From Candidatus Fermentibacterota bacterium (GTDB lineage Bacteria; Fermentibacterota; Fermentibacteria; Fermentibacterales; JCC-6), in the NCBI GenBank assembly GCA_963845085.1, contig CAWJQI010000005.1, positions 701,832-765,831 on the forward strand: a stretch of 64,000 nucleotides of DNA. The letters are read 5' to 3'. Under the pieces are notes generated by a model, which saw only the letters and a list, made by a program, of their open reading frames with translations, was not told the origin of the DNA and searched no databases. This document shows, one piece after another, positions 34,435 to 53,256 of the stretch. How positions within the stretch are numbered: the stretch's first letter is position 1; every line of letters starts with the position of its first letter. The position numbers and the translations under genes were made by a program.

Positions 34435-34767
34435 TTGTTCTACTGCCTTCTCATTCCCCTTGCAGAGCCTTTCGTGACCGGGTGCTGGCCGGAACTGACG
34501 GTCTGCAGAAGCATGGCAACAACAGGCAGACCCTGCATGTTCTGCGGCCTGACACGCGATTCGCAACGGCTTGTCTCGTCGGGGAGGCTGCCGGCCCGCC
34601 CCAATAATCCCAACACTGTGCTGTTCCTTGTTCTTTTTGCCCTGGAGGCTGCCTTCAGGGTCTGCGCGGTCCTGCTTGCCCGGGGGAACCGCCTGCGCGG
34701 GTGGCTCTGCGCCGATGCGGGTTATCATCTCGCAGCGGCGGCCCTGCTGTTTCTTCGCCTGAAGTAA
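34435..34767 (+). CDS. DUF2752-like membrane protein
   Basis: C...TG.PC.FCGLTR...NP motif; the start may extend to CTG 34393. Confidence 0.65.
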   Translation: MFYCLLIPLAEPFVTGCWPELTVCRSMATTGRPCMFCGLTRDSQRLVSSGRLPARPNNPNTVLFLVLFALEAAFRVCAVLLARGNRLRGWLCADAGYHLAAAALLFLRLK

Positions 34768-36439: not shown

Positions 36440-36536
36440 TCTCACGCTCCCTTCCACTGAATATACCCTTGAAAAACACGGGAAGCGGGCCGTACTTACG
36501 TGTGTGAACACCTGTTCATCTGAAAGGGGACGAAAA

Positions 36537-36983
36537 ATGCCGGAAGAACGAACAACAGTCTACGAAGCCAGGGTGAGCGCTGGCAATGCCACTTACTTCA
36601 TCGATGCGCGTCAGGCGGTCAACGGAAGGTACTACCTGTCAATCACGGAAAGCAGGCGAACCGATGGTGACAGCTTTTCGCAGCGCAGGGTAATGCTTTT
36701 CGAGGAAGGTCTTCCCGAGTTCAGAAACATTCTGTCAGAAGCGTTCGACACCATCGGCAGGCTTGTTTCGACCCGTCGCGAGGACGAAGTGCTTGAGGTA
36801 AGGAAACTTCACCCCAAGGCTTTCATGAAGTGGTCACCCGCGGACGAGGAGGAACTCGAGCGTGAATTCCGCAGGAATGCCGATGCAACATCCATCGCCA
36901 AACTCATCGGAAGAACCGAGAAGGCCGTTCTCGCAAGGCTCGAGAAAATGGGGCTGGTTCAGCCCGGCGCGGCGGCTGTCTAG
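36537..36983 (+). CDS. DUF3276/PUR-family nucleic-acid-binding protein with C-terminal HTH
   Basis: AG..TYFID...YLSITESR....R.RV.LF.E; C-terminal W...EE......IA..IGRT..AV..RL. Confidence 0.72.
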   Translation: MPEERTTVYEARVSAGNATYFIDARQAVNGRYYLSITESRRTDGDSFSQRRVMLFEEGLPEFRNILSEAFDTIGRLVSTRREDEVLEVRKLHPKAFMKWSPADEEELEREFRRNADATSIAKLIGRTEKAVLARLEKMGLVQPGAAAV

Positions 36984-37432
36984 CAGGAATCCTTCAGCTT
37001 CGAACACGGTTCGGGCGAGGCCCTGAGAACCCTGCTCATCACGGTGATGTCGTTGCGCACATGCCAGCCGGCTTTCAGATAAAAGGCCAGGGCCGGGTTG
37101 TCGCTAAAGATGAAGAGGTGGATCTTTTCGAGGCCCGCTTTTGCAAGGGCCTCTTCCACCCTGCACATGAGCCTCTTCCCAAGACCCCTGCGCTGATGGT
37201 CCTCCCGCACGGCAAGGTGGTACACATAGCCTCGCCTGCCGTCGCTTCCGGCCATAACGCTTCCTGTCACCCCGCCTTTGTCCGTGGCGGTGAAACAGAA
37301 ACTTCCGTTGCGCTTCAGAAATGTTTTGAACTCACCGGGCGAATCAGCCCCCGTAACCGCAGTTCCGGGAAACGAACTCCAGAGCTTCACGAGAGGTTCG
37401 TGATCTTCCGGGCGCATTCTGCGGATCCCCAT
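36980..37432 (-). CDS. GNAT N-acetyltransferase (YpeA-like)
   Basis: G.DGRRGYVYHLAV...QRRGLG...N.A..FY...GW. Confidence 0.88.
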   Translation of the reverse strand: MGIRRMRPEDHEPLVKLWSSFPGTAVTGADSPGEFKTFLKRNGSFCFTATDKGGVTGSVMAGSDGRRGYVYHLAVREDHQRRGLGKRLMCRVEEALAKAGLEKIHLFIFSDNPALAFYLKAGWHVRNDITVMSRVLRASPEPCSKLKDSC

Positions 37433-37453: not shown

Positions 37454-38608
37454 CTACGAGCCGTCAGGTGTGGAGAGCAGCTGCCTGATCCAGGGAAGGA
37501 TCCGTGTTCCCGCGGACATGTCGACAATGAATGCAACAACACCGGAAATGATCAGCGTCATGATGATCACCTTGCATGCATCAAGGCTTTTGATGCCGCC
37601 GATCTGTCTGGGCTCCCGGCCCAGATAGGCGCTTGCCGCGTACAGCTCTTCGCCGATCAACGTGTAATCGCAGGTGGTGATGAAAAACGGTAGCTGGGTG
37701 ACCGCGTCGGTACCGGCGATCTGAATCGCGCCGGACAGTGAGCCCGTCTCGGCAAGGATGAGGCTTTCCGCCCAGAACATGCCGAGATAGAAATTGGTTG
37801 CCGGTCTTTCCCGCATCATGATGCCGTTGACCCCGGCCACGAAGGCGAACTGGCTCTGCGTGAGGAAAAACACGCTGTTGGGATCGTACGAGTCGGGTCT
37901 TCCGGCCTCGAGATATGCCTGCTTGACCGACTCTTCGGCCACCGTGTAGACGATGGGGTCGGTGTTCGGAACGATGATCCGGGTCTGATAGTCGGCCACC
38001 TTCCTTGCAACCCTTCCAAGGATGGTGAGGCTGGCGATGGTTGCCACATCCTCGATAACCGACAGCCCCGGAACGTAGAGAATGGGCTTGCCCATCTCGG
38101 TCGCCCTGCCGATCGCCTCGTCTATGGCTTCAATGCCCCCGATGGGTCTGAGGTAGAAGTTCGCCCCCCTGACAGCCCTGTTGAAATAGTAGAAGATGAG
38201 GAAGAGGAAGAGGCAGCAGGCGACTAGTGTGGGGACCTCGCCGGTATGGAACCACGACCCGACAGGAGTGGCTGCGTCCGTAAACAATGGCCCCCTGAGG
38301 GTGTCGCCCGCGGTGGTTAGAAACGCAGGGATGTAATGGTACCTGGTCCCGGCAGTTATAGGGAAATCAGGGTCGTACCCGTCCACAAGGTCATTGCTTT
38401 CAAGCGGAACGGTTTCGACAATCACGAGTTCCCATGATTCCTCATCCGCAGGGGTGCGATAGACAAGCAGGGCCGCAATGTCATCAAGCTCGTCGGGCAG
38501 GGAAACAGTGATGATCAGCCTGTCGCCGGCATCGTTCGGGGAATCGGTGACGGCTGCGATCTCGGGAAACAGCAGACAGAGTATCACAGGAACAAAAACA
38601 TGTACCAT
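37454..38608 (-). CDS. DUF6754-like membrane-anchored protein (paralog of 47057-48352)
   Basis: LRPI.GIEAIDEAIGRATEMGKP...FFITTCDYTLIGEELYAASAYL; periplasmic FN3-like N-terminus. Confidence 0.8.
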   Translation of the reverse strand: MVHVFVPVILCLLFPEIAAVTDSPNDAGDRLIITVSLPDELDDIAALLVYRTPADEESWELVIVETVPLESNDLVDGYDPDFPITAGTRYHYIPAFLTTAGDTLRGPLFTDAATPVGSWFHTGEVPTLVACCLFLFLIFYYFNRAVRGANFYLRPIGGIEAIDEAIGRATEMGKPILYVPGLSVIEDVATIASLTILGRVARKVADYQTRIIVPNTDPIVYTVAEESVKQAYLEAGRPDSYDPNSVFFLTQSQFAFVAGVNGIMMRERPATNFYLGMFWAESLILAETGSLSGAIQIAGTDAVTQLPFFITTCDYTLIGEELYAASAYLGREPRQIGGIKSLDACKVIIMTLIISGVVAFIVDMSAGTRILPWIRQLLSTPDGS

Positions 38609-38641
38609 ACGTATGCCCTTTCGCAAACCGTTTCACGAGAT

Positions 38642-38696: not shown

Positions 38697-40007
38697 ATGA
38701 ATGGCAACTGCTCCTGTCCTCTGGAGTGTGAAAGGCACGGCGACTGCGTCGCCTGCAGAAGATTTCACGAGCTCCTGGGAAAACAGGTCTACTGCGAGAA
38801 GGATCTAGTGGAAAAGGTGCATGCAGGCTCGTCGCCATCGGTAAACCTGATGGATTACGCCGCCTGCGCCGGTTGAGCCGGCAAGATGTCTCCCGGCAGG
38901 TTGTCGGGAATTCTTGATCGCCTCCCCAGGGTCCTGTCGCCGGAATTGATCGTGGGCATGGAGTCCATGGACGATGCCGGGGTCTACCGTATTGCACCCG
39001 ACCTGGCCCTCGTTCAGACCGTGGACTTCTTCTCACCGGTCGTTGCAGGCCCTGTCGAATTCGGGCGCATCGCGGCGGCCAACAGCATGTCGGACGTCTG
39101 GGCCATGGGCGGCGACGCCATCACTGCCATGAACCTGCTGTGCTTCCCGGGAAACACGCTGGGTTCCGATATAATCGAACAGATCCTGTCCGGGGCGTGC
39201 GAAAAACTCGTTGAGGCAGGAGTCGTTCTCGTCGGCGGCCACACGATGGAGCAGGACCAGATCGTCTTCGGTCTCAGCGTCACCGGCGTCATCCACCCTG
39301 AAAAGGCGTTGCGAAACTCCGGTGCACGGCCTGGCGATGTCCTGGTTCTTACAAAACCGCTCGGTTCCGGGGTCATGACGACAGCCAACAAGGCCTCCGC
39401 CCTTCCTCCGGAATTGTTCCAACCCGTGCTGGCTTCGATGGAACGGCTGAACCTCTACGCATCCCGCATTCTCAGGGATTTCAACGTCAGCGCCATGACG
39501 GACGTGACAGGGTTCGGCCTTCTCGGGCACGCCCTCGCAATGGCAAAAAGCGCTTCGGTCTCCTTCAGGATAGAAAGCTCTTGCGTGCCCCTGTTCACAG
39601 GCGCCAGAAGTTACGCGAAGGATTTCTTCCCCGGAGGTTCCGGCAACAACAGGAAATACGTGGGGGAGAACGTTTCGGTTGCGGATGGGCTCGAAGCGGA
39701 ACTTGTCAAACTGCTGTTCGACGCACAGACTTCAGGCGGTCTTCTGGCTGCCGTTCTTCCCGAACAGGCCGATGAAATGCTCGACAGGCTTCACCAGAAC
39801 GGTGACACCGCATCAGCTGTCATCGGTGAGGTCTGCGCGCTATTCGAACGGCCCCTGCCTCGTGGTCACGCAGTAGGCTTTCAGAAACCCTCTTCTTTTC
39901 TTCTCAGCTTGGTTTCGGCCCTCTGGCGTTTCTCCTCGAGCCTGCGCTCCCGTGACGCATCGGTAGGCCTTGAGGGGATTCTTGCAACAGGTTTCCTCGA
40001 TGCCTGA
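38697..40007 (+). CDS. selD: Selenide, water dikinase (selenoprotein, Sec60) with N-terminal Cys-rich extension
   Basis: Open frame from ATG 38697 to AACAG*(TGA 38874-38876)AGKM; DDAGVY, QTVDFF, AANSMSDVWAMGG, GGHT, TDVTGFGLLGH, DAQTSGGLL; true end is probably 39876 (suspected frameshift near 39838). Confidence 0.92.
38882..38916 (+). promoter_or_regulatory. SECIS-like hairpin of selD
   Basis: UCCCGGCA-GGU-UGUCGGGA upper stem plus CAAGA/UCUUG lower stem; CAGG at the apex as in the two paralog hairpins. Confidence 0.68.
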
Positions 40008-40273
40008 TCCAGAAGCTTTTCAAGCCTTTTCCTTGCCGCCCTGAGGTTCTGCTCGAAGCTTCGGTGTTCCCTGGCCTGGAACACGATCTCGTCGCGGCCG
40101 TTCAACTTCGAACCCGCCGCTTCCCGCAGCCTCTCAGCCACATCCTCGGGTATGCCGCTGTCGGAGATGTTGAAGGTTAGTGTCACCCCGGAAAGGGTGC
40201 GATTCTGGTGCTGGCCGCCGGGACCGCCGGCGCCCATTGCCTGAATTGTTACAGCGTCAGGGTTGTATTTCAT
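39881..40273 (-). CDS. arfB: Alternative ribosome rescue peptidyl-tRNA hydrolase
   Basis: GAGGPGGQHQN; basic C-terminal tail RIPSRPT..SRERRLEEKRQR..K..R. Confidence 0.88.
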   Translation of the reverse strand: MKYNPDAVTIQAMGAGGPGGQHQNRTLSGVTLTFNISDSGIPEDVAERLREAAGSKLNGRDEIVFQAREHRSFEQNLRAARKRLEKLLDQASRKPVARIPSRPTDASRERRLEEKRQRAETKLRRKEEGF

Positions 40274-40285
40274 AATGGTGGGGGT

Positions 40286-40361
<76 letters not shown>

Positions 40362-40391: not shown

Positions 40392-41162
40392 TTACCGGTC
40401 AAGCTCGGACAAAAGGGACTCAAGGCTCAGCCCTGATCTTATCCCGAACCTTGTGAGCGCGAAATCATACCGAACCGGGTCTTCCGGGGAAAGTCTTCTG
40501 AAACCCTCAGTGATCTCGAGGACGGCCTTCAAATCGGGGCTTTTCCTTGCCGTGAACCCGAAACGGCTGCCGACCTTCCACATGTGGGTGTCGATGGGAA
40601 CCAGAAGGAGTGACGGAGAGATCGATTCCCATCCGCCGGGATCCACGTCGTCACGTCTCACCATCCAGCGGAACCAGAGGTTCAGCCTTTTGCAGCAGCT
40701 TCCGCGCGACGGGCAGGGAAGCAGGCTCGATGCGGCACCCCCGCCCGTGATTTCCCTCACCAGAAGGCGCTGGGCTTCAAGGATGCCGGAGCGGCCGACC
40801 TCCCCTGATACAAAAGCACCCAGGGAACCGTGCTCCTGCTGAAGCCTGACCGCTCCCTCGAAAACATTCACGATGGAATCACCCGTGGTGAAGCGGTGTC
40901 TGAACCCGCTGAGCTTCTCCCGAAGCCGGACCGGAGAGCAGAGGGAAGGCCGGCTTCCCATCGAGTCGAGAACAAGGCCCACGCTTCGCAGGATCTGTCT
41001 TACCCGGCCGTAAGCCAGCCCCGACGCCAGAAGGCCCGCTATCTCCCTGTCGCGCAAATCATCGTAGCGGTACAGAAACTCGAGGGGGTCGGGATGCACG
41101 AACTCCCTGCGGTTCCATCTGATGTACAGTTCTTCAAGAAGGCCGGCGAGACCCTCAGTCAA
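40392..41162 (-). CDS. TIGR02757/DUF2400 family protein
   Basis: DPL, LAYG.V.QI, KRLNLWFRWMVR.D.VDPG.W, DP..YDFAL. Confidence 0.9.
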   Translation of the reverse strand: MTEGLAGLLEELYIRWNRREFVHPDPLEFLYRYDDLRDREIAGLLASGLAYGRVRQILRSVGLVLDSMGSRPSLCSPVRLREKLSGFRHRFTTGDSIVNVFEGAVRLQQEHGSLGAFVSGEVGRSGILEAQRLLVREITGGGAASSLLPCPSRGSCCKRLNLWFRWMVRRDDVDPGGWESISPSLLLVPIDTHMWKVGSRFGFTARKSPDLKAVLEITEGFRRLSPEDPVRYDFALTRFGIRSGLSLESLLSELDR

Positions 41163-41412
41163 GCTCCAGGTCCACCCGTTTTGCGATTACGTCGTTAAGG
41201 GCGTTGAGCTTCCTGACAAGCTCCTCCTTCTTCCCCTCCTCGCCCACAAGGTCAAGGATGATGAGCCCCTTCTCCGAGCAATCATCAAGGATCCCCTCGT
41301 GGATGCCCAGGCGGGTCTTGATCATGCAGCCCCAGCCCGTAAGAACCTTCTGCACGTTTGCAGCGGCCTGGTTCCTGTGGGATACAAGGATGACGACGAC
41401 GGTTTTCTTCAT
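41155..41412 (-). CDS. TM1266-like iron-only hydrogenase system regulator (ACT-like)
   Basis: R...A..VQKVLT..GC.IKTRLGIHE....CS..GLIIL. Confidence 0.78.
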   Translation of the reverse strand: MKKTVVVILVSHRNQAAANVQKVLTGWGCMIKTRLGIHEGILDDCSEKGLIILDLVGEEGKKEELVRKLNALNDVIAKRVDLELD

Positions 41413-41417
41413 GGAGA

Positions 41418-41570
41418 TCACTCCTTCTCGAACATGTCCTTGCCGACGCCGCAAATGGGGCATACCCAGTCTTCGGGGATATCTTCGAATGCTGTTCCGG
41501 GGGCTACTCCGCCGTCGGGATCACCCTGGGCGGGGTCATAGATCCATCCGCAAGCCTGACAAACCCACAT
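41418..41570 (-). CDS. Rubredoxin
   Basis: [34 protein letters not shown]. Confidence 0.96.
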
Positions 41571-41619: not shown

Positions 41620-41919
41620 TCAGAGTGGTTCCTGCGCCCTGTCAACAGCGCTTCCAAGGCACTCCATCACGGCTGAAAGCTGTTCCCCGTCCGCTTCATC
41701 CCCGATCATGACCTCGACCCAGCCGTTCCCGGCAGGCATGACGAAGGGATACTCCTCCGTGAGGGGTTCAAGATCGAGAGGGTGGACGAGCAGCTTCATG
41801 CTGCAGACCTGCCCGGCCTCATCGACCCTGCCTATGAGCCTGTCGCCGACGAGTATTGCGCGGCCTTCCGCATCAAGGGAAACACCCTCGAAAGACCTTA
41901 CCACTCCGATGATGTTCAT
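41620..41919 (-). CDS. Hypothetical protein
   Basis: ATGA overlap with the upstream GlmL fusion; 99 aa; no recognised motif. Confidence 0.6.
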
Positions 41920-44666
41920 TCGTGCTCCGAAAGGAACCAGGGCCTTTCCACACCCGCCCTGATCCTGGTTGCAGTGAATACCGCGCCATGTTTTCCGATC
42001 ATGGCCTCAAGTGATCGCCAAGCCTCATACTCAAAACGGATCGAACCGGTTCCCCGAACAACGAGGATGGATACGGGAAGGTCCTCACCCCCCGTCAGTA
42101 TCACTCCGGGATCGTATCCCAGGTACGTCGAAACCAGGTCGCCGGCCATGGAGGGACAGATAAGCGCCGCGGCCCGGGCTTCGCGTGCCCGCATGATGTC
42201 CTCCCATGTCAGGGGGCCTTCCAGGAGCACGATCGCGTCCTTCGCGGGGTGTGTCGAAAGCACGCCGTGGGCGTTCCTGCCCAGCCCGAGAATACCCTCC
42301 ATTCGAATGCCGCGGAAGGAAAGGGTCGCGGAGTGGGCGGGCTCAACCCTGACCACCGTCCCGAACAGCGGTGACTCAAGGCGCACCGGATCGGTCACAT
42401 ACTGCACGGTCACCGTGCCGGCTTTCCCGTCAACCGTTGTGACGGTCCCGGCCGATGGTGACTTGATCGTAACAAGCCTTTCACCGACTGCCAGCGCCTG
42501 TCCCCTTAGAACGAATTCCCCTCTCTTCACCTTGAGGAACTTCATGCTGTGACGGGGGCTCACTCCAAGCGGACCCGCAACATCGACCACATGGGGCTTC
42601 CCGTCGTAGTCCTGTATCTCCGTGAGACAGATCAGCCCCGGCGGGACGACCCTTGTCACGAGCCCCCTGACCGGGCTTTTCACCTCGTGAACAGCGTGAG
42701 TCAAGCCTGTTCCGGTCTCCCGGCGGTACACGACCATGCCCTGTGAGACCGTATCTCCCGGTCGAACCCTTACATTTGCCATGACTTCATCGGAGGGAAG
42801 GTTCCCCCTGTAGCCATCATGCCCCCTGACGTCGATGAAATACACCATGGGCGGGCTGAGCCGGTTCTGTCCGAGGAGGTGCCCGGGCTGAACATTCACG
42901 CCGGGCTGAACGAGTATCTCGCCCGGGTATGGAAGGGCGAAAGTGTGCTCCATTTCAGAGGGGCCTGTGAAAACGGTGTTTCGGGACTGTGTGGCGGGTT
43001 GTGACTTGATCTCCAGTGGGCGCCGGTCGAAGTCAAGGGGAAGCGGCTGGGACGATTTCGTCCTGCAGTCGACAAGAAGGGGAACGTCTTCAGTCTCGCG
43101 CCAGCCATCCGCTTCATGGTCCTTCCCGTTCCTGAGGAAAAGAAAGTCGCCGCCGGCAACGCATATCTCCCCTTCGGGTCCCCTCACCTTGACGGCTGTG
43201 CGTCCGTCGCGCATTCCGTAAAGCGGGGTGACCACCCGGCATACCGTTCTGAGGCAGTTCTTCCTGTAGTAATCCAGGGCCATTTCGGGGTACACCGTGC
43301 TGAGAACGCCCATGTGTGGGCTGTGGAACCTGCCGTCGACCATCAGGGTTGTCACGCCCCTCGGATGAAAGCCCTGGGCGAGTATCCATGCGGCACGGAT
43401 GTCGTCAGAGTGGGCCAGAACGCCCCCCGCCCCTATCAGGGTTCCGAACTCGCTCACGCGGAATCTGTGCGCCCCGTCGATGGTTCTGAATTTCTCATCG
43501 AATTTGCATCTCCCGATCAGCTTCAGCCTGTCCAGGAAACCCACCCTCTCCCTCTGGTAGGAAAAATCCATGTGCTGCTCATACGCCAGCCTCATGCCCT
43601 CGGCGGCACATACATGCTCGACGAGGCGCCCGAAATCATCAGACGGCGGCGTTGCGGGGAAGAGGGTTTTCTCAATCACCCTGTCGCGGACGACAGCCTC
43701 GAGGGCTCCCGGCAGATGGCGCATGACCATCGATGGCTCCGCTTCGCGAAGGATGTTGGAGATGCTGTAGCTCATGCCGATGTTGGCGCTTACCGTGCGC
43801 TGCACCCCTCCGCCGGTGATGCTGAATACATCGGTGGTCGCTCCGCCCATGTCCACGAGAAGGATCTTCTCTTCCCTGCCCTCTGCAAAACGGGCGAGTA
43901 TCCTCTCGACGCCTGACGGGGTGGGTATGACGGGAGCCGATGCTGCAGAGGCAACGGTGTGGTAGCCGGGAGCCATCTGCATCACGTGGTCCATGAAAAG
44001 GGAGTGAACGACGCCGATTGCGGGCCTGAGATCGAATTCGGTGCCGGAGGGTCTGATGTTGCCCGCGAAGTGCAGCTCGAAATCGTCGCCCAGGGTCTCA
44101 CGGACGTACTCGCGGGCGCCCGTGTTGCCGCAGAAAACAACAGGAAGCCTGCCCCTGCCGTACTTGGGCCGTGGAGCCGCGAGGGCGAGAAGCCGGGCCA
44201 TGTTCACAACCGAGGCGACCGCACCGCCCTCGTAACCGCCCGCCATCACAACGAGGTCGGGGGACAGGCCGCTCATCCTCTGAATCTTCTCAACCCTCGG
44301 GGTTTCGTCGTCGATTGTGAAAGCGTCAAGCACCACGCCCCCGGCACCGCATGTCACGGCCCGGGCCATGACCCCGGTGTCCCAGGAAGCCAGGGCTATC
44401 ACGAGGATCTGAAGACCTCCGCCTGCCGAGCTGGTCGTGTAGAACGGCACAAGCAGCTTGTCACCGTCCCTTAGGGCGATGCCGGTCTTTGTGGCAAGTC
44501 TGTCGACGGCGCGGAACAAGCCCACCCTGACGTCTTCGCAGGGGCTTTCAACGGTCGTCGGTTCGTCGGCGCTTCCAACGACTTCGAGCCGGCCATCGGA
44601 TATCTCGAGAAGAAGCGCCTTTGTGGTTGTGCTGCCGATGTCGGTGACAAGAATGATCTCGCTCAT
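41916..44666 (-). CDS. GlmL/MutL-type (glutamate mutase L) ASKHA ATPase fused to barrel-sandwich hybrid repeats
   Basis: TDIGSTTTKA, SSAGGGL, PTP, VDMGGATTDVFS, RTVSANIGMSYS, GAGGVL; C-terminal V.V.PG..V..G and KSP..G.V..V repeats. Confidence 0.82.
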   Translation of the reverse strand: MSEIILVTDIGSTTTKALLLEISDGRLEVVGSADEPTTVESPCEDVRVGLFRAVDRLATKTGIALRDGDKLLVPFYTTSSAGGGLQILVIALASWDTGVMARAVTCGAGGVVLDAFTIDDETPRVEKIQRMSGLSPDLVVMAGGYEGGAVASVVNMARLLALAAPRPKYGRGRLPVVFCGNTGAREYVRETLGDDFELHFAGNIRPSGTEFDLRPAIGVVHSLFMDHVMQMAPGYHTVASAASAPVIPTPSGVERILARFAEGREEKILLVDMGGATTDVFSITGGGVQRTVSANIGMSYSISNILREAEPSMVMRHLPGALEAVVRDRVIEKTLFPATPPSDDFGRLVEHVCAAEGMRLAYEQHMDFSYQRERVGFLDRLKLIGRCKFDEKFRTIDGAHRFRVSEFGTLIGAGGVLAHSDDIRAAWILAQGFHPRGVTTLMVDGRFHSPHMGVLSTVYPEMALDYYRKNCLRTVCRVVTPLYGMRDGRTAVKVRGPEGEICVAGGDFLFLRNGKDHEADGWRETEDVPLLVDCRTKSSQPLPLDFDRRPLEIKSQPATQSRNTVFTGPSEMEHTFALPYPGEILVQPGVNVQPGHLLGQNRLSPPMVYFIDVRGHDGYRGNLPSDEVMANVRVRPGDTVSQGMVVYRRETGTGLTHAVHEVKSPVRGLVTRVVPPGLICLTEIQDYDGKPHVVDVAGPLGVSPRHSMKFLKVKRGEFVLRGQALAVGERLVTIKSPSAGTVTTVDGKAGTVTVQYVTDPVRLESPLFGTVVRVEPAHSATLSFRGIRMEGILGLGRNAHGVLSTHPAKDAIVLLEGPLTWEDIMRAREARAAALICPSMAGDLVSTYLGYDPGVILTGGEDLPVSILVVRGTGSIRFEYEAWRSLEAMIGKHGAVFTATRIRAGVERPWFLSEHE

Positions 44667-44708
44667 GAATCATCTCCTTCACCCAGAATTTGAGGGCCGG
44701 GGAAGGCG

Positions 44709-44737
44709 GGGCGCCCCCGGCCGTGCCGGGGGCGCCC
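44709..44737. other. Perfect 13-bp all-GC intercistronic stem-loop
   Basis: gggcgcccccggc-cgt-gccgggggcgccc between the stop at 44743 and the start at 44666. Confidence 0.85.
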
Positions 44738-44742
44738 TGTGA

Positions 44743-45372
44743 TCAGTTGATCAGACCGAGCCAGTCGTTGAGAAGGAACTGTATCCTTCCGATGAGAAGG
44801 CTGATTCTGCCCATCACTGTGAAGCCGAACGTGGCCCCGAACCCGATCATTATGACCCATATGCCGATCTTTGAGCCGGTTCCGAAGAACGGCCCCTTGT
44901 GCGGCTTGCTGAAGAAGAAATAGATCAGGGCTGCAAGGGTCCCGAATACGAGGATGACGTTTCCGGCAACGATGTGCCAGGGCATTCCCGCCTCATAGAG
45001 CGGAAGAATGGTGGCCTCGAGCTGCCTTAGAACGCTTGCCTTCATGGAAAGCGGGAACCCCACGCCCATGCTCGTTCCCATGATGAAGGCCATCGGGTAG
45101 CGCGAGAGCCACGCTATCTTCGGGAAGAACCGGGTTATGTACAGCAGGCCCAGCAGCGCCGGAACGAACAGGATGTACTCGCCGTCGATCGCTATGGGAT
45201 CGATGAGCCTTGGTTTCAGCACCTGGGTGTAGGTCACCACGATGAAGTACCCCGTGGATATGCCGACCACCAGGTGTTCACCAAGCCTGTACAGGGGGTT
45301 TTCCTTGTAGAGGAAGGAGTACATGGCAAGGGTGAAGATCGCCGCGGTCCAGATTCCGATGGTTTCGTACAC
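44743..45372 (-). CDS. Conserved hypothetical integral membrane protein
   Basis: About 6 TM segments; SFLYKENPLYRLGEH...GFGATFG.TVMGR. Confidence 0.8.
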   Translation of the reverse strand: MYETIGIWTAAIFTLAMYSFLYKENPLYRLGEHLVVGISTGYFIVVTYTQVLKPRLIDPIAIDGEYILFVPALLGLLYITRFFPKIAWLSRYPMAFIMGTSMGVGFPLSMKASVLRQLEATILPLYEAGMPWHIVAGNVILVFGTLAALIYFFFSKPHKGPFFGTGSKIGIWVIMIGFGATFGFTVMGRISLLIGRIQFLLNDWLGLIN

Positions 45373-45375
45373 GGT

Positions 45376-46377
45376 CTACCTCCTTCCCTTGAGCAGGGCG
45401 CCCTTTTTGTGGAATCCCCCGGCGAAGTAGGCGATATTGCCGAGAACTATGAAGAAAAGGATCAGCAGGTGAGCTGCGTTCTGCACATCCATGCCGATGA
45501 ACGCACGGTCAGGCTCGTCAAAGTATCCGGCCTGCTGCAGCAGCACCTCGTACTCGGCCGCGCCCCTCAGGCCGCCCATCTGTCCCACGAGCTGCCCGGA
45601 CTGAATGAAGATGGTGTAGTCGGTTGCGCTCACCGCAGTGACTCCGAAGGCAACAGGGAGACCGATCTTCTCGCGGCCGTATGTGATCCACCAGGTGCAC
45701 GCGGCCGTGCCCGAGAAGGTCGTGGCAAGGTCAACATCCCGAAGGCTCTTGTGCTCCTGAAGCATGGGCATTTCCACAAGCGGGTTGCCGTTCATGTCTT
45801 CGGGGTACTGGGAGGCTATGGACGACGTCATGCCGAGGATCACAAGGCTGAAGTAGGGCAGATACCCGAGCTTCACGAAGTCGCGCCCCTCGAAGACCCA
45901 ACCCGAGGAATTGGCAGGAAGAACGTTTCCGTCGGCTTCCCACGCGGCCTGAAGCTCGTCTCTGTTCGTGATGCCCTGATCGCGGTACGATGCCCAGTCC
46001 TGCCAGGAAACCACATGGAAGTACCCGTCGAGGGCTGGGTTGGTCATGTAGCCGAAACCGGATTCGAGCATGCCCTGAGCCAGAGGTGCGTTGGCCGTGA
46101 AGAAAACCGGGATGTGCCTTGCGAAGGCATGCCTGGTTACCGCCACCGCCATCGGCATGTTTTCGGGATCCGTGCCCGGATCGAAGTCGAAGCTTACGAA
46201 GATGGCGTTTTCCGGGCCGAGGTTTTCAACGTAGTCGAAGATGGAAATAACGTGCTGGGTCGGGATCACCGGCAGGCCGAAGGGCATGAAGAACGGCACG
46301 ATGCATACCACGCCGATGAGGAGGAAGATCCAGCGCCTGTCGAGGTTGAGCATTCTGCTCCAAATGCTGTCTTTCAT
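45376..46377 (-). CDS. Conserved hypothetical membrane-anchored protein
   Basis: N-terminal DRRWIF TM; soluble alpha/beta domain; SGQ..G..GGLRGAAEYE; C-terminal TM. Confidence 0.8.
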   Translation of the reverse strand: MKDSIWSRMLNLDRRWIFLLIGVVCIVPFFMPFGLPVIPTQHVISIFDYVENLGPENAIFVSFDFDPGTDPENMPMAVAVTRHAFARHIPVFFTANAPLAQGMLESGFGYMTNPALDGYFHVVSWQDWASYRDQGITNRDELQAAWEADGNVLPANSSGWVFEGRDFVKLGYLPYFSLVILGMTSSIASQYPEDMNGNPLVEMPMLQEHKSLRDVDLATTFSGTAACTWWITYGREKIGLPVAFGVTAVSATDYTIFIQSGQLVGQMGGLRGAAEYEVLLQQAGYFDEPDRAFIGMDVQNAAHLLILFFIVLGNIAYFAGGFHKKGALLKGRR

Positions 46378-46388
46378 TCCTTCACCTC

Positions 46389-47033
46389 CTAATCACCGGC
46401 GCCGCCGAGCCAGTTACGCTCGACGCCGAAAATGATCTTGAGCTGGGTTGCAAGGATGCCGAACCCCACGCCAAGACCGATTGCCCTTTTTGCTGCATTG
46501 TTGGGAAAGTCGATGATCCAGAGGCCGAGCTTCGGGAACCAGCTCCCGAGGAGCTCGCCGATCGGGACCTGGCCCATCATGACTATGACCGCCGTGAGAA
46601 GAAGGATGGTGGCCAGCATGCTCTTCGCACGGAACGCCCTGAATGCGGCGCTCGCGATGTAGAAGGCCAGCAGGCTGAACATGGTCGACTGGATGGGCAC
46701 CTGGATGTGCATGAAGGCGAAGTGATAGACGCCGGGCTCGTCCATTCCCCCACCGACCGATACGGGGAGAAGAAGGGCGAAGATCGGCATCAGGTAGATG
46801 GGGATCAGAACTGCGAGGCTGTACGGCCAGTTTGCGGCCCTGTTCCGAACCCTGTGCCCGTGAAGCCTGGTAAGGCTGCCCACGCCCAGGATCAGGGCGA
46901 AGGCGCCGATGATGGGCACCCAGATCGTATAGTTGTCGAAGATATCCTGCGAGATCTGGTGGGGGATGAAGTACTGAATGATCATCAGCACTCCGCCCAC
47001 CAGCACTATCATGAGGGGAACAGCTCTCTTCAC
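46389..47033 (-). CDS. Conserved hypothetical integral membrane protein
   Basis: Multiple TM segments; TMFSLLAFYIASAAFRAFR...A.RAI.LG...G.ER. Confidence 0.8.
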   Translation of the reverse strand: MKRAVPLMIVLVGGVLMIIQYFIPHQISQDIFDNYTIWVPIIGAFALILGVGSLTRLHGHRVRNRAANWPYSLAVLIPIYLMPIFALLLPVSVGGGMDEPGVYHFAFMHIQVPIQSTMFSLLAFYIASAAFRAFRAKSMLATILLLTAVIVMMGQVPIGELLGSWFPKLGLWIIDFPNNAAKRAIGLGVGFGILATQLKIIFGVERNWLGGAGD

Positions 47034-47056
47034 TGCTCAATACTCCTTCCGGTGGG

Positions 47057-48352
47057 CTAATCCACGATCTGCGAGGTCACAATGTCTTTGAGCCACGCAA
47101 GGGTTTGGGTTTCCGCGAACATGTCCACCAGTGCCAGAACGATGCCCATTGTGATGAAGCCCATCAGGATCGCCTTGCACGAGTCCAACCCCTTGATCGA
47201 GCCCATCTGCATGGGCTCACGGCTGAGGTATGCGCTGGCTGCGTAGAGCTCCTCACCGATCAGGGTGTAGTCGCAGGTTGTGATGAAGAACGGAAGCTGC
47301 GTGACCGCATCGGTCCCCGCGATCTGGATCGCGCCGGAAAGCGAACCCGTCTCGGCGAGGATGAGGCTTTCCGCCCAGAACATGCCGAGATAGAAATTCG
47401 TTGCGGGTTTCTGGCGCATCATGATGCCGTTCACACCCGCCACGAAGGCGAACTGGCTCTGGGTGAGGAAGAAAACGCTGTCAGGGTCGTAGGAATCGGG
47501 TCGGCCGGCCTCGAGGTACGCCTGCTTCACAGCTTCCTCCGCGACGGTGTACACTATGGGGTCACGGTTGGGAACGATGAGCGCGCTCTGGTACTCGGCC
47601 ACCTTGCGGGCAACCCTGCCGAGAATGGTGAGGCTGGCAATCGTAGCCACGTCGGAAATGTCGGAAAGACCAGGCACATAGAGGATGGGCTTGCCCATCT
47701 CCGTCGCCCTTCCGATGGCCTCGTCTATGGCTTCGATCCCCGCGATGGGGCGCAGGTACATCGTGGCGCCCATCTTTGCCCTGGAGAAGAAGTAGAAGAT
47801 CAGCCCGATGAAGATGAGGCAGGAAACCAGCACCCTGACCTTGCCCTGGTGGAACCACTGACCGCTGGCCACGGTCTGGGCGACCTGCGGATCACTGTCA
47901 ACCACCGTTTCATCGAGGTACATGGCGCTTATGCGATACTCGTAGACCTCTCCTGCAATGACGGGGAAATCAGGGTCATAGCCGTCGATGAATTCGGTTC
48001 CCTCGCCGACCGGGATCACTCCGACAACGGCCCACTCCTCGTCGGGCGCCCCTTCCGGCCTCCTGTTGACCAGGTAGGCTGCGAAAAGTTCGGTCTGCTC
48101 GGCCTCGCTGCCGGGCGAAAAGCTCAGGATGAGCCTGTCACCGGCGTCGTCGGGATGATCGATCACCGTGATGCCGCCCGGCGGGATGAGTTCGACCCCG
48201 CTGAGGGGCGAAGTCTCCACGGGAGGAAGCTCCGTCGTCTCATCGGTTGAAACGGCTGGTTCCGCCGGTGAGGGTTGCTGTTCAGTCTCCCCGGTCTGGC
48301 CCAGGGCAACCGAGGCCAGAAGCAGGAGAACCAGATAAAGAATCCTTGTCAT
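47057..48352 (-). CDS. DUF6754-like membrane-anchored protein with periplasmic FN3-like domain
   Basis: Signal peptide; D.PDDAGD; TM; GRATEMGKP...DYTLIGEELYAASAYL. Confidence 0.82.
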   Translation of the reverse strand: MTRILYLVLLLLASVALGQTGETEQQPSPAEPAVSTDETTELPPVETSPLSGVELIPPGGITVIDHPDDAGDRLILSFSPGSEAEQTELFAAYLVNRRPEGAPDEEWAVVGVIPVGEGTEFIDGYDPDFPVIAGEVYEYRISAMYLDETVVDSDPQVAQTVASGQWFHQGKVRVLVSCLIFIGLIFYFFSRAKMGATMYLRPIAGIEAIDEAIGRATEMGKPILYVPGLSDISDVATIASLTILGRVARKVAEYQSALIVPNRDPIVYTVAEEAVKQAYLEAGRPDSYDPDSVFFLTQSQFAFVAGVNGIMMRQKPATNFYLGMFWAESLILAETGSLSGAIQIAGTDAVTQLPFFITTCDYTLIGEELYAASAYLSREPMQMGSIKGLDSCKAILMGFITMGIVLALVDMFAETQTLAWLKDIVTSQIVD

Positions 48353-48376: not shown

Positions 48377-49294
48377 TTACTTGAAGAAATCAACAATGAT
48401 TTCGGCCACTTCAGCACCGACCCTGTCGGTCGCACCCGCTGTACCGGCTCCCATGTGGGGGCTGGCCACGACCTTGCCACTCTTCACCAGGGGGCTCTCC
48501 GCACCGGTGAGGGGTTCGGTCTCAAACACGTCGAGTGCGGCGGCGGCAACCCTGCCCTCTTCGATGGCGTTGTGCAGAGCGCTCTCATCGATCGTTCCGC
48601 CGCGACCGCAGTTGACCACCACGACGCCCTTTTTCATCGAGGCGAACCTGGCGGCGTCGAGGATGTGGTGGGTTTCGTCGGTGTGGGGCACATGAAGGCT
48701 GATGAAGTCGGCCTTGCTGCAAAGCGTTGCGAGGTCGACCTTTTTGCCGGGAACGCCGGCCTGTTCACCGGCATACGGATCATAGAAGACCACATTCATG
48801 CCGAAGGCCGCGGCCCTTTTGGCAACTTCCTTCGCAATTCTGCCGAAACCGATCAGACCAAGGGTTGAATTGAAGAGCTCAAGTCCCTTGCTGAAGGTTT
48901 TCTTGTCCCAGATGCCATCCTTCATCGTGCGGTCTGCGCCGGTGATACCGCGGCAGCAGGCGAGCATATGGGCCATTGCAAGCTCCGCGACCGCAACAGA
49001 ACTGGCGGCGGGGGTGTTCTTTACGGCGATTCCCAACGCTTCGGCATGTTCGACATCAATGTTGTCAACGCCCACTCCGCCCCTGACCACGAGCTTCAGC
49101 GAACCCTTTGCCCTGTCCAGGACGGGAACCCTGACCTTTGTTGCGCTGCGCACGACCATTGCATCGAAGGGAGGTATCGCTTCGAGCAGGGCGTCCTGGT
49201 CCATGCCGGTTTTTACCACAACTTCATGGCCCGCTTTTCTCACCACATCCAGAGCGTCTTCGGATACTGGGTCACAGATGAGGATTTTTGCCAT
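48377..49294 (-). CDS. D-2-hydroxyacid dehydrogenase (SerA-like, no ACT domain)
   Basis: VRSATKV, RGGVGVDNID, GFGRI, N..RGG, LDVFE.EP, PH.GA.T. Confidence 0.9.
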   Translation of the reverse strand: MAKILICDPVSEDALDVVRKAGHEVVVKTGMDQDALLEAIPPFDAMVVRSATKVRVPVLDRAKGSLKLVVRGGVGVDNIDVEHAEALGIAVKNTPAASSVAVAELAMAHMLACCRGITGADRTMKDGIWDKKTFSKGLELFNSTLGLIGFGRIAKEVAKRAAAFGMNVVFYDPYAGEQAGVPGKKVDLATLCSKADFISLHVPHTDETHHILDAARFASMKKGVVVVNCGRGGTIDESALHNAIEEGRVAAAALDVFETEPLTGAESPLVKSGKVVASPHMGAGTAGATDRVGAEVAEIIVDFFK

Positions 49295-49356
49295 TCCGAG
49301 CACTTCCTTTCAACACGAAACGCTTGGGATTTTGTCGACTGAAAGCAATATGCAAC

Positions 49357-50307
49357 CTATCCTCGATGCCCGGCCAAGTCAATGACCGCACACACGATTC
49401 CTTCAATGGAAAGGCCGAACAACCCCGCCAGTTCCTCCGGTGTGCCGCTTTCCCCGAAACGGTCCGGGACGCCCATGATGCGCATGGGAAGTGGTCTGTT
49501 CACTGCCAGAAACTCGGCCACGGTTCCCCCCAGCCCTCCCGCAGCCTGATGATCCTCAACGGTGACGACACCGAAGGCACTCGCGGTGGTTTCCATGAGA
49601 AGGGCTCCGTCAAGGGGTTTCACTGACGCCATGTCTATCACCGCTGCGCCGATTCCCTTCCCCAGGAGCGTTTCTGAAGCTTCGAGCGCCGGGGCGACCA
49701 TTGCTCCGCAGGCCACGATGACGACATCCCGCCCCGGGCGCAGCAGGTTCCCCCGCCCCGGCACCAGGGGATGTTCGCTGCCGTAAAGCTGCGGAACCGG
49801 GTTTCTGCCGAACCTGATGTAGACCGGACCCGGCAGCTCAAGCGAAGCCAGCACGGCCGCACGGGTCTGGTTTGCATCGGCCGGAACCAGCACCGTCATG
49901 CCGGGCAGGGTGCGGGTCTGGGCGATATCCTCAAGGGCCTGGTGCGTTCCTCCGTCGGGGCCCACACTGAGGCCGCCGTGGGCTCCGCCGATCCTCACGG
50001 GAAGCCCCATGTTGCATACCGATGTTCTGATCTGGTCGAGTGCCCTGCCAACGGCGAAGACCGCGTAAGTGCTGTAGAAGGGAAGAAAACCGGCAAGGGC
50101 AAGTCCGGCTGCGTGGCCCGCAATGTTCTGCTCGGCTATCCCAAGGTTCCAGTACCTTCCGGGGAACCTGTCACGGAAGGCCTGAGTGCCGATGGAGCGC
50201 CCGACATCCCCATCCAGCACAACCACCCTCGCATCCTTCTCACCGGCTGCAAGCAGGCCTTCCAGGTATCCCTCCCTGGTGGGGCGAAGCGGCAGACCGG
50301 TCATCAT
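49357..50307 (-). CDS. Transketolase, C-terminal subunit
   Basis: GIAEQN, DQIR, G.DG.THQ..ED, GP.YIR, DRFGESG. Confidence 0.93.
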   Translation of the reverse strand: MMTGLPLRPTREGYLEGLLAAGEKDARVVVLDGDVGRSIGTQAFRDRFPGRYWNLGIAEQNIAGHAAGLALAGFLPFYSTYAVFAVGRALDQIRTSVCNMGLPVRIGGAHGGLSVGPDGGTHQALEDIAQTRTLPGMTVLVPADANQTRAAVLASLELPGPVYIRFGRNPVPQLYGSEHPLVPGRGNLLRPGRDVVIVACGAMVAPALEASETLLGKGIGAAVIDMASVKPLDGALLMETTASAFGVVTVEDHQAAGGLGGTVAEFLAVNRPLPMRIMGVPDRFGESGTPEELAGLFGLSIEGIVCAVIDLAGHRG

Positions 50308-51131
50308 GAAAGCTCTTTCAAAGCCCTTGCGAGCTCGGTTTCGTCGGGAGCCCTGCCGTGCCACCCGCATTCGCCCTCCATGAATGAAACTCCCCTTCCC
50401 TTCACGGTGTCCGCGATGACCGCCAGTGGACCCCGGCCCGGGTGTGATAAGGCTGTTTTCAGCTCTTCGGGGTCATGCCCGTCGCAGCGCTGAACCCTCC
50501 AGCCGAATGATCTCCACTTGTCCTCAAGCGGCTCGACCGGAATTATCGAGCAGGTTGGACCATCAAGCTGCACACCGTTGTTGTCCACAATCGCAGTGAG
50601 GTTGTCGAGACCGAGGGCGGGCGCTGCCATCGCGGCTTCCCAGACGGCGCCCTCCTGAAGCTCTCCATCCCCGAGAAGGCAGTAGACCCGGTTCCCGGTG
50701 CCTTTGAGGCTGAGCCCGAGCGCAAGACCCGACGCTATGGACAGACCCTGACCGAGGCTTCCCGTTGAGCAGTCCAGCCCCGGCAGGTCCTGCATGTGGG
50801 GATGGCCCTGGAGTCTTGATCGCAGCCTTCGCAGAGTGAAAAGCTCGTCACATTCGAAGTAGCCGCACCTTGAAAGAACAGCGTACAGGGCCGGGGCAGC
50901 ATGCCCCTTGGACAGCACGAATCTGTCCCGGCGCTCCCAGCGGGGGTTCTCAGGGTCGTGCCGGAGGATGCCCCGGTAAAGCAGAACGAGGATCTCGACG
51001 CACGACAGGCTGCCGCCGGGGTGCCCGCTTCCGGCACAATGGATCATCTCCAGAATGAGGCGCCGCACGGCCCGGCACTCCCCGATCATGGCAGCAGCAT
51101 TCCACGCACTTGTTCCGGGTGCGCCTACCAT
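50304..51131 (-). CDS. Transketolase, N-terminal subunit
   Basis: SGHPGGSLS, DRFVLSKGHA, TGSLGQG, GDGELQEG..WEA, TVKGRG, WH. Confidence 0.93.
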   Translation of the reverse strand: MVGAPGTSAWNAAAMIGECRAVRRLILEMIHCAGSGHPGGSLSCVEILVLLYRGILRHDPENPRWERRDRFVLSKGHAAPALYAVLSRCGYFECDELFTLRRLRSRLQGHPHMQDLPGLDCSTGSLGQGLSIASGLALGLSLKGTGNRVYCLLGDGELQEGAVWEAAMAAPALGLDNLTAIVDNNGVQLDGPTCSIIPVEPLEDKWRSFGWRVQRCDGHDPEELKTALSHPGRGPLAVIADTVKGRGVSFMEGECGWHGRAPDETELARALKELS

Positions 51132-53256
51132 GCCTTGGCGGCTTTCTCCGGTCCGCCCCCCTCTTTTGAAAGCGGGACGTACCCGGTCAGGATGGTCTTG
51201 GGCTCGTCGAAGCCGAAATCGATGGAGAGCTCCCATTCGTCACCGCGGCGACGGGCGGACAGGACCATCCCCCTGCCGTAACGGGGGTGCCTTATCACCT
51301 CGCCCCTTTTGTAACCCTCGGGCTGGGTGGGGCAGGGCATCACGGGTCTTGGGGCGGGGGATTCGGAGAGGACCGGCGCTATCTCGTTAAGGAAACGGGA
51401 TGGACCGCACCTGAAGCCGCCCTGTTGCATCCTGGCCAGACAGGATGTGAGAAAAAGCCTTTTCCTTGCCCTTGTCATCCCCACGTAGAGCAGCCTTCGC
51501 TCCTCCTCGAGGTCGGACGGGGCGCTCTCGTTCCTGCGGATATGCGGCAAAAGCCCCTCCTCGAGGCCGGCAATGAAAACCACGTCGAACTCCAGCCCCT
51601 TTGCGCAATGCAGGGTCATGAGGGCAATGCCTTCCTCGCTGTAGGCGTCCTGCGTCGTGAGAAGGCTCTGCTCGGCAAGAAACCCGGGCAGGCCGCCATG
51701 CGGCTGACCGATGTCGTACTGCGCGGCAAAGCGGCGAAGCTCCTCGATGTTCTCAAGCCTGGACTGGTCGGCCACGTCATCGGGGTTGTACTGCTTCTGA
51801 AGGCCTGTTTCCAGAAGCACGAGGTCGATTATCTCGCCGGCCGGGTCTCCGCTGGAAACCATCCCGGCCGCCTTCCGAAGGCTTGCCCCCAGCTCACCCA
51901 GTGCCGCCGCTCCACGCTGGGTGATCCCCGGCCAGGAATGTGCGTTGGAGAGGGCCGACAAATAATCCCCGCCAGCCAGGGAAGCCTGGCTGAAGAAGCT
52001 CTCCGTCCCCTTGCCGCCGACACCTCGGGGTGGCTTGTTTATGACCCTGTAAAGGCTTTCGCCATCCCTCGGATTGACGATCACCCTGAGAAAGCTCACA
52101 AGATCCTTGATCTCCTCGCGCTCGAAGAAACGCTGGGCTCCGACAACCTCATACGCAACACCGCACCTCCTGCATGCCGCCTCGAACTCCCTGGACTGGG
52201 CGTTGGTCCTGTAAAGAACCGCCATCCGGTTGAGCGGGGTGCCCGACGTGTGAAAGGCGAGCGCTGTCCTGACGGTCCATTCAGCCTCGTCGGGGGGGAG
52301 GCGACCGGCTGGACCTTCACGGGTTCACCGGTTTCCTGGACCGACCGGAGTGTTTTTCCGTGCCGTCCCAGGTTGTGCGTGACAAGAATGTCGGCGGCCT
52401 TGAGAATGTTTCCGGTCGACCGGTAATTGGTCTCGAGCCTGACGATCTTCGTGCCGGGAAAGTCCTTAGGGAAGTCGAGGATGTTCGAAACCCTCGCACC
52501 CCTCCAGCCGTAAATGGCCTGATCGTCGTCGCCGACCACCGTCACATGTGTGGAGCCTCCCGCCAGGGTCTTGAGGATTTCGTGCTGCACAAGGTTGGTG
52601 TCCTGGTATTCGTCGACGAGGATCCTGAGAAACTTGGAGCGGTAGTAATCCCCTATGTCACTATTTTGACGCAATCCCTTAAGAGTGTATGTCAACAGAT
52701 CGTCAAAATCGAAAGCCCGGTTCTCCGCAAGAATCCGCTGGTAGGAGTCGTAAACCCTTGCCAATGCTTCCTGTCTTACCGTTGCCGCCTCTTCCAGGGC
52801 TTCCCCGGGAGAGAGAAGGTCGCTCTTCTTTCCGGAGATCCACGACAGCGCGGCGGAAACCGTTATTCCCCCGGGCAGTGACATGTTTTTCAGAAGCTTT
52901 CTGATGATGCTCTTCTGGTCTGAACCGTCGTACACGGTGCAGTTGTCGCCATACCCGAGCCGGCCGGCCTCCCGGCGAAGAAACCACAGGCAGGTCGAGT
53001 GGAATGTGCCCATTCTGGGAAGGTCCCTGCCTCCCAGCATCTCGTCCACCCTTCTCCCCATCTCGCGGGCGGCCTTGTTCGTAAAGGTCATGGCAAGGAT
53101 GTTTCCGGGTTTGACAGTTCCCTCCCTCAACAGACGGGCGATCTTGGCCGTCAGGACCCTGGTCTTGCCGCTTCCCGCTCCTGCAAGCACAAGAAGATGC
53201 CCGTCATCATACTCCACGGCCTCCTTCTGCTCGGGGTTGAGGTGAAGATCATTCAT
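51125..53256 (-). CDS. UvrD/PcrA helicase, split by a frameshift in the G7 run at 52292-52298
   Basis: AGAGSGKT, TFTNKAA, DEYQDTN, NYRST in one frame; DEAEW...AVLYRTNAQSR, MTLHCAKGLEF, EERRLLYVGMTRA in another. Confidence 0.9.

Follow-up and report, generated by a model that had tools for sequence, protein, structure and literature searches.

A conserved four-gene DUF6754 membrane cassette and its putative ASKHA ATPase partner in Fermentibacterota

The closest described relatives of the ATPase considered here are GlmL/MutL, an accessory protein of glutamate mutase, and Or-4 of ornithine degradation, which share with it the Pfam family MutL (PF13941) and the phosphate motifs of the ASKHA superfamily. 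GlmL is a single domain of ~450-460 residues, and its role as a reactivase of glutamate mutase is presumed rather than demonstrated. In the stretch of DNA analysed here (the window, 64,000 nucleotides of a Fermentibacterota metagenome-assembled genome of 2.45 Mb that is 88% complete), we found a MutL-type protein, E, that differs from GlmL in having 916 residues, twice the length, in carrying a long-form extension and a fused partner with barrel-sandwich-hybrid motifs (hybrid-barrel partner), and in being linked to a cassette of four membrane-protein genes, A to D, in a genome where the E subunit of glutamate mutase was not found. Gene A encodes a DUF6754 protein. DUF6754 (PF20539) is a Pfam family of no known function, for which Pfam records the domain only; what we add to that record is its fold, its topology, its fixed B-C-D partners, its copy numbers and its link to an ATPase.

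Other membrane systems offer further points of comparison. NqrA and RnfC, the peripheral subunits of Na+-NQR and Rnf, have N-terminal barrel-sandwich-hybrid domains that resemble the partner part of E (above cut-off in homologues of E), and in both cases a soluble subunit is paired with small polytopic subunits of ~200 residues. However, B and D match no Pfam family, those of Rnf and Nqr included, no flavin or Fe-S motifs were identified, and energy would here come from an ASKHA ATPase rather than a redox module. Group II ECF transporters and the ABC transporters that share an MsiK-type ATPase may be analogous in another respect, in that one ATPase set would here serve 2-5 paralogous cassettes, with variable extracytoplasmic parts and a constant cytoplasmic domain as the putative docking site, but no ABC or ECF component was detectable with Pfam or NCBIfam and the fold of the ATPase differs. 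Finally, MacB/FtsX-type ABC proteins, TonB-ExbBD and TolQRA couple an energy source in the cytoplasm or inner membrane to periplasm-facing domains. A similar transmission of force to the envelope would suit the predicted periplasmic modules of A, which vary in length and are often long, and the occasional outer-membrane protein genes nearby, although no sequence match to these systems was found and such neighbours occur in only 7-9 of 80 loci. Judging from titles and the openings of abstracts, limited to main texts, we found no description of DUF6754 or of the system in the literature, and searches of the PDB by sequence and profile with A to E found no solved relative. Cassette and ATPase match no studied system.

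The genes of interest are six tightly packed open reading frames, A to F, all co-directional on the minus strand at 41620-48352. The set had been described from the sequence in just this form, and every reading frame was recovered at its place. The genes and the domains of A and E discussed below are as follows.

48352..47057, minus strand: gene A, DUF6754 protein, 431 residues from the ATG (438 if an upstream TTG is the start)
47858..48190, minus strand: predicted FN3 ectodomain of A, residues ~55-165; VIA-align against 4bq6_A gives Z 12.7 and a root-mean-square deviation (rmsd) of 2.3 A over 101 residues
47222..47743, minus strand: predicted cytoplasmic Rossmann-like alpha/beta domain of A, residues 204-377; domain-only model with a predicted local distance difference test score (pLDDT) of 89.9
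47033..46389, minus strand: gene B, polytopic membrane protein, 214 residues, no family match
46377..45376, minus strand: gene C, membrane-anchored protein, 333 residues, no family match
45372..44743, minus strand: gene D, polytopic membrane protein, 209 residues, no family match
44666..41916, minus strand: gene E, fusion of a MutL-type ASKHA ATPase with a hybrid-barrel partner, 916 residues
43257..44654, minus strand: ASKHA ATPase part of E, residues 5-470, PF13941, with phosphate-1 and phosphate-2 motifs intact
41919..42935, minus strand: partner-like part of E, residues 578-916; barrel-sandwich-hybrid repeats, then an alpha/beta region
41919..41620, minus strand: gene F, small protein, 99 residues, no family match

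Spacing between the genes is 23 nucleotides for A-B, 11 for B-C, 3 for C-D and 76 for D-E, and a consensus scan of the region gave no excess of promoter- or terminator-like sites over shuffled sequence. Families were assigned to the window's proteins by scans against Pfam and NCBIfam. The source names of close homologues include Candidatus Fermentibacteraceae and Sabulitectum.

The cassette recurs far beyond this genome. A pattern search built from A returned at least 436 confirmed loci, and in the 80 kept for analysis, from more than 10 phyla, the order A-B-C-D was fixed wherever the locus had room for it, often as two or three cassettes in tandem. These loci come from Fermentibacterota, WOR-3, Zixibacteria, Cloacimonadota, Ignavibacteriota, Latescibacterota, Gemmatimonadota, Planctomycetota and others. 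For the 15 loci with three-cassette arrays, 36 of 45 copies of A had their nearest relative from another locus in the corresponding place of its array (FastTree); the cassette paralogues and their order in the array are therefore old. DUF6754 was present in all 70 Fermentibacterota genomes, typically in 2-4 copies, and in all 101 genomes sampled from the Zixibacteria phylum, at ~5 copies each. The window's own genome has a second full cassette (C5, ~844.7-848.0 kb) whose products are 46%, 42%, 32% and 47% identical to A, B, C and D, respectively. A search of representative sequences gave 33233 matches at an E-value of 1e-3, 11330 at 1e-10 and 2109 at 1e-30, counts that overstate the DUF6754 family since the profile included FN3 columns.

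Protein A matches DUF6754 over profile positions 2-254 of 257 (E-value 1.2e-116; 388.7 bits against a cut-off of 27). Its AlphaFold2 model (pLDDT 87.3) shows, in order, a signal peptide, an FN3 domain, a transmembrane helix, a six-stranded Rossmann-like domain and a long second transmembrane helix, the same architecture (signal peptide, FN3-like domain, membrane segment, cytoplasmic alpha/beta domain) that had been proposed from sequence. Hydropathy and charge predict that the Rossmann-like domain is cytoplasmic and the FN3 domain periplasmic. With a mean pairwise identity of 66% among 135 A sequences from across the phyla, the Rossmann-like domain is the most conserved part of the system, and the FN3 domain, at 27% in the same sequences, is its variable part. 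The N-terminal part is missing from some DUF6754 relatives and reaches several hundred residues in others; it is often long. The overall picture is of a constant cytoplasmic face with variable outer modules.

A fold search with the full-length model of A was swamped by FN3 matches, and the Rossmann-like domain was for this reason searched by itself. Its best VIA match was a sirtuin (Z 10.2, rmsd 3.8 A, 144 residues), tied at Z 9-10 with the C-domain of phosphoglycerate kinase (PGK), transhydrogenase dIII, KTN/RCK and many other Rossmann-type folds, so that these matches are generic. Foldseek returned nothing for the domain at an E-value of 1e-3 or below, and neither a GxGxxG-type loop was evident nor a cofactor-binding motif identified in it.

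The other three cassette proteins have no Pfam or NCBIfam match (nor does F), and the 37-46 homologues scanned for each of these three showed no consistent Pfam match. PDB sequence and profile searches with A to E gave nothing below an E-value of 0.2 (nothing below 0.1 for the B, C and D profiles), and C hit unnamed clusters only in the ESM Atlas, with no usable named one. At the level of Pfam, NCBIfam and PDB sequence and profile searches, the membrane proteins thus match no characterised transporter, in agreement with the view taken of them at first reading; kinship to ABC, ECF, TRAP or other transporters was checked by sequence and profile. B has ~5 hydrophobic segments and the conserved motifs LAFxxASAAYRAFRA and GIER, and D is marked by SFLYKDNPxYKFAEH, YFFFSKEHKG and FGASFGYTVMxRxSLLIGR. 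C consists of an N-terminal anchor with a conserved DRR motif, an acidic domain of 266 residues, predicted from hydropathy and charge to be periplasmic, and a C-terminal transmembrane helix with conserved Q299, H303 and N314. Mean pairwise identity, over 100 sequences each, is 47% for B, 47% for D and 38% for the putative periplasmic domain of C.

Around the anchor of C, residues 13-18 read D-R-R-x-hydrophobic-hydrophobic, with R14 in 100% and R15 in 93% of 117 sequences; the motif resembles a twin-arginine export signal, and a TatC gene is present in the genome. Six cassette genes in tandem arrays (two B and four C; loci L031, L037, L042, L049, L072 and L085) were read through an in-frame stop and are candidate pseudogenes, sequencing errors or merged calls. 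A suspected resemblance of A to C and of B to D was not borne out by profile-profile comparison (hhalign), all probabilities among A to D being <4%, and one apparent neighbouring cluster of reading frames proved to be antisense frames over B and C, an artefact of how the frames were picked.

Protein E matches the Pfam MutL family over residues 5-470 (E-value 1.7e-78, 264.9 bits). Both ASKHA phosphate loops named in the sequence-only reading, DIGSTTTK and DMGGATTD, are present in its translation, and residues D9, G11, S12, T13, T15, K16, D272, G274, G275, A276, T277, T278 and D279 are invariant in 40 fused homologues, as are G414 and G415, two adjacent glycines at the expected place of the adenosine motif. 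The motif names (phosphate-1, phosphate-2 and adenosine) follow ASKHA usage. On its motifs, E is a predicted ATPase of the ASKHA superfamily. The C-terminal barrel-sandwich-hybrid repeats, likewise described before, exceed the Pfam cut-offs in homologues of E (NQRA_N 29.9 bits, RnfC_N 26.7-28.2 bits) but fall below them in E itself (Biotin_lipoyl 21.3 bits, RnfC_N 21.0 bits).

The two parts of E have counterparts in the same genome. Residues 5-512 align with a separate long-form MutL of 622 residues (36% identity) and residues 689-916 with a separate MutL partner of 375 residues (24% identity), both encoded in a canonical split system.

C5:877992-881778, minus strand: canonical split system, with two small membrane-protein genes (140 and 148 residues), MutL (622 residues) and partner (375 residues)

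By these alignments, E is the fused form of two proteins for which most lineages have separate genes. Its earlier description as a GlmL-type ATPase fusion holds as far as the fusion goes and is refined to MutL plus its partner. The split MutL lies 32 kb from the genome's second A-D cassette, whereas the two are direct neighbours in most of the phylum's other genera, and the two small membrane-protein genes 5' of the separate MutL recur in 5-7 loci of other phyla. Fused proteins of 856-1030 residues fill the listing of the 120 best relatives of E, where the sole shorter one has 619 residues and covers 68% of E; the source names of the fused relatives among these 120 include Fermentibacteria, WOR-3, Zixibacteria and Edwardsbacteria. 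In the three fused relatives scanned (P0116, P0105 and P0090), an N-terminal XRE-type helix-turn-helix domain, HTH_3, precedes MutL (3 of 3; E-values 6e-15 to 2e-8), and a precomputed match to PF01381 is recorded for 5 of the 120 best listed relatives. The three proteins are about 990-1030 residues long, and their helix-turn-helix may bind DNA or protein, as in RodZ.

The sequence-only reading had called E an orphan, without a mutase partner, and had suggested a different role for its ASKHA domain. We found no match to the glutamate mutase E subunit (Met_asp_mut_E) in the window's genome, and in a search aimed at this subunit and not at other B12 mutases it was above cut-off in 0 of 70 Fermentibacterota genomes, with one sub-threshold match. 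MutL-family genes, on the other hand, are present in 69 of the 70, which speaks for a non-mutase role. E also falls below the NCBIfam cut-offs for GlmL (NF040745, 149.5 versus 475 bits), Or-4 (NF040744, 133.5 versus 600) and the GlmL family (TIGR01319, 88 versus 204). Because no mutase E subunit was found above cut-off and the curated GlmL cut-offs are missed, E, while a member of the Pfam MutL family, is on profile evidence not a GlmL-type mutase helper here.

The ATPase is tied to the cassette by position and by co-occurrence. MutL and its partner lie beside the cassette array in 25 of the 80 loci, in 19 of these 0.3-1.4 kb upstream. By their coordinates, at least 30 Fermentibacterota genomes carry a separate long-form MutL and a DUF6754 gene on one strand and no more than ~3.5 kb apart; in most members of the window's genus the distance is 10-32 kb. 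The Zixibacteria-phylum sample has MutL in 100 of 101 genomes at ~1 copy, or ~1 MutL gene per 5 DUF6754 genes. More informative is a third phylum (n = 81 genomes), where presence is patchy. Cassette and MutL are found together in 72 of these genomes and are both missing from 7; the cassette occurs by itself in 2 and MutL by itself in none, kinship being uncorrected in these counts. The two occur together in genomes of all three phyla. The association is frequent, but many loci have no adjacent ATPase and three genomes have no MutL at all. When the A cores in a tree were labelled by ATPase adjacency, the labels clustered, but this pattern is confounded by shared ancestry and was set aside.

We propose that A to D form an inner-membrane complex and that E is its ATP-dependent cytoplasmic partner, one ATPase serving several cassettes, a proposal to which we give about an even chance. 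It builds on the observed gene order, co-occurrence, fusion, folds of A and intact ATPase motifs. The four cassette proteins would make up one conserved complex with B and D as its polytopic core. A would extend its variable FN3 module into the periplasm and its highly conserved Rossmann-like domain into the cytoplasm, and C, anchored at both ends, would place its acidic 266-residue domain in the periplasm. E, or the separate MutL and partner, would be the cytoplasmic component, most likely docking on the cytoplasmic domain of A, and its binding and hydrolysis of ATP would drive conformational work across the membrane, whether uptake, export or the transmission of force to the envelope. A single ATPase would serve several paralogous cassettes. 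A wider claim is that this would be a new class of primary membrane machine: modules of four subunits, ancient and paralogous, would carry substrates or force across the envelope, several of them drawing their energy from one ASKHA ATPase and its hybrid-barrel partner. We regard this claim as possible but on balance doubtful.

Complex prediction with residues 1-480 and 578-916 of E and residues 204-377 of A, run with three controls, bears on the docking step. The score was 0.55 against 0.04 for the best control and dropped to 0.04 when the ASKHA chain was replaced; contact agreement between runs was at least 91% and the pLDDT of the partner at least 77. Of 80 solved complexes, 58 passed the mark used for this prediction, only 7 of them with a score of 0.60 or lower; of 110 mismatched pairs, 2 passed, both with a score in that range. 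The verdict is weak support for E docking on the cytoplasmic domain of A in these models.

Several observations weigh against our proposal. A pass with a docking score of this size is wrong more often than it is right, unless the interaction was probable from the outset. Thirteen loci outside Fermentibacterota have 8-10 kb of upstream sequence with no ATPase in it, and three genomes (G071, G072 and G225, with 3-5 DUF6754 genes each) carry cassettes without a MutL match. Co-occurrence carries little information in phyla where both genes are universal, and related genomes are not independent. The identity of the cytoplasmic domain of A (66%) is far above what a mere docking platform would need, and this domain could itself be a catalytic or nucleotide-binding engine. 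Nor is there a clue to a substrate: recurrent neighbours of the cassette appear in only 7-9 of the 80 loci (pyruvate phosphate dikinase 9, Wzi-like protein 9, TonB-dependent receptor 7, acetyl-CoA synthetase 7). The three MutL-less genomes are either natural cases of a cassette without its ATPase or assembly gaps; G071, which belongs to the Zixibacteria phylum, has a locus (L042) recorded as chromosome.

The main alternative is that E is a chaperone for assembly, repair or cofactor exchange, the part commonly ascribed to GlmL, EutA and DdrA with B12 enzymes, and that A to D are self-sufficient, for example as an ion- or nucleotide-coupled enzyme using the domain of A. The only named relatives of E are indeed GlmL-type accessory proteins, and such a role would sit well with one ATPase gene per ~5 cassettes, with the three genomes that have cassettes but no MutL gene and with the many arrays that lack an adjacent ATPase. 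The domain of A is also conserved at the level of an enzyme, and its fold is like those of sirtuins, the PGK C-domain, transhydrogenase dIII and KTN/RCK (Z 9-10). These fold matches are, however, generic and tied, and no cofactor-binding motif was identified in A. Moreover, the reactivase role of GlmL is itself presumed, and near-perfect co-occurrence suits a stoichiometric partner equally well. We consider the chaperone role unlikely.

Alternatively, E could act not as an energiser but as a sensor or regulator responsive to the condition of the membrane complex, in the manner of Mlc, an ASKHA-fold repressor held at the membrane by PtsG. The HTH_3 domain in all three scanned fused relatives, PF01381 in 5 of the 120 best listed ones and the weak support for E binding the cytoplasmic domain of A would all be in keeping with such a role. 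Against this, the window's E and most of its relatives have no helix-turn-helix, and where it occurs this domain could serve to bind protein, as it does in RodZ. Strict conservation of the ATPase motifs and the constant presence of the hybrid-barrel partner also count against it, the latter pointing to mechanical or enzymatic work. A sensor role for E therefore seems quite improbable to us.

We judge it similarly improbable that E and the A-D cassette are functionally unrelated neighbours linked only by shared genome ancestry. E does move within the phylum, being adjacent to the cassette here and ~5 kb off or on another contig elsewhere, and both genes are near-universal in the searched phyla, which inflates their co-occurrence. 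But adjacency recurs in several phyla with different local arrangements, the 72/7/2/0 distribution comes from a phylum in which presence is patchy, and the docking score of 0.55 compares with 0.04 for the best control. Least probable is a cytoskeletal or scaffolding role for E, as a membrane-tethered member of the actin superfamily with A to D as its anchors, on the model of MreB with RodZ, MreC and MreD organising envelope synthesis: the ASKHA fold family of E, the helix-turn-helix fusions that recall the MreB-binding domain of RodZ and the mix of bitopic and polytopic partners, some with periplasmic domains, would allow it, but PF13941 places E with GlmL and hydantoinase-type enzymes rather than with polymerising actins, and 2-5 cassette copies per genome would be unusual for a shape system.

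The position of E in the window looks recent. Fused E directly follows D only here and in the nearest relatives (L006, L015 and L016); it lies ~5 kb from the cassette in L008 and L009, and because other genera have it a few kb off or on another contig, its placement after D looks like a late event. Gene F was rightly counted in the set, although it is tied to the cassette and not to E. Its start overlaps the stop of E by 4 nucleotides, it directly follows D in L011 and L012, and in a sister family without fused E it sits ~2.7 kb downstream of the DUF6754 gene, where the gene after D would be. As F follows D elsewhere and keeps this place in the sister family, it belongs to the cassette and not to E, as a small lineage-specific accessory. 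F evolves fast (59% identity within the genus, ~35% at order level) and was found in 19 of the 70 Fermentibacterota genomes.

The following genes lie around the six-gene set.

48377..49303, minus strand: PGDH-like D-2-hydroxyacid dehydrogenase, 308 residues, Pfam 2-Hacid_dh_C E-value 3.9e-59, directly upstream of A
41418-41570, minus strand: rubredoxin gene, downstream of F
41155-41463, minus strand: CPF_0552-family (NCBIfam) gene with a weak TM1266-like match, downstream of F
37454..38626, minus strand: lone DUF6754 paralogue without B-D, Pfam E-value 7.6e-112, 65% identical to A (tblastn)

Fermentibacterota loci usually run from the dehydrogenase through A-B-C-D to F, rubredoxin and the CPF_0552 gene (as in L012, and in L014 without a detectable F). 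The dehydrogenase, which had been noticed as SerA-like, is indeed present upstream and precedes A in 15 loci (L006-L017, L019, L021), but the association is specific to Fermentibacterota; only one further locus (L081) has it beside the cassette, 3.7 kb downstream of the second cassette. Rubredoxin and the TM1266-like gene, the latter better matched by CPF_0552, were found downstream as described, and both recur there in L006, L012, L014, L015 and L016. Split transketolase genes (N- and C-terminal subunits; 49357-51236, minus strand) lie 53 nucleotides upstream of the dehydrogenase gene on the same strand, and given these genes the co-directional block is possibly longer than A-F. A reading frame of 145 residues at 39881-40318 (minus strand) has a GGQ motif (GPGGQHQNRT) and is a candidate ArfB-type peptidyl-tRNA hydrolase. 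The lone DUF6754 gene is followed by a GNAT acetyltransferase gene (36980-37432, minus strand) and a YgiQ-type radical SAM gene (34655-36511, minus strand); a lone A was also found downstream of the cassette in related Fermentibacterota loci.

DUF6754 is present in every genome searched of two phyla, amounting to up to roughly 20 cassette genes per 3-Mb genome, and one domain of the cassette equals core enzymes in conservation, although three of the four cassette proteins fall in no family. The carrier lineages are abundant in anaerobic digesters and sediments, and a core membrane function of unknown nature limits metabolic models of them. If it is true that an ASKHA ATPase energises this complex, it would be a new type of motor for membrane transport or envelope biology, distinct from ABC, P-type, V/F-type and AAA+ ATPases; the widespread annotation 'glutamate mutase L' would be corrected, and the system would represent a core and so far unseen part of the physiology of whole FCB-group phyla.

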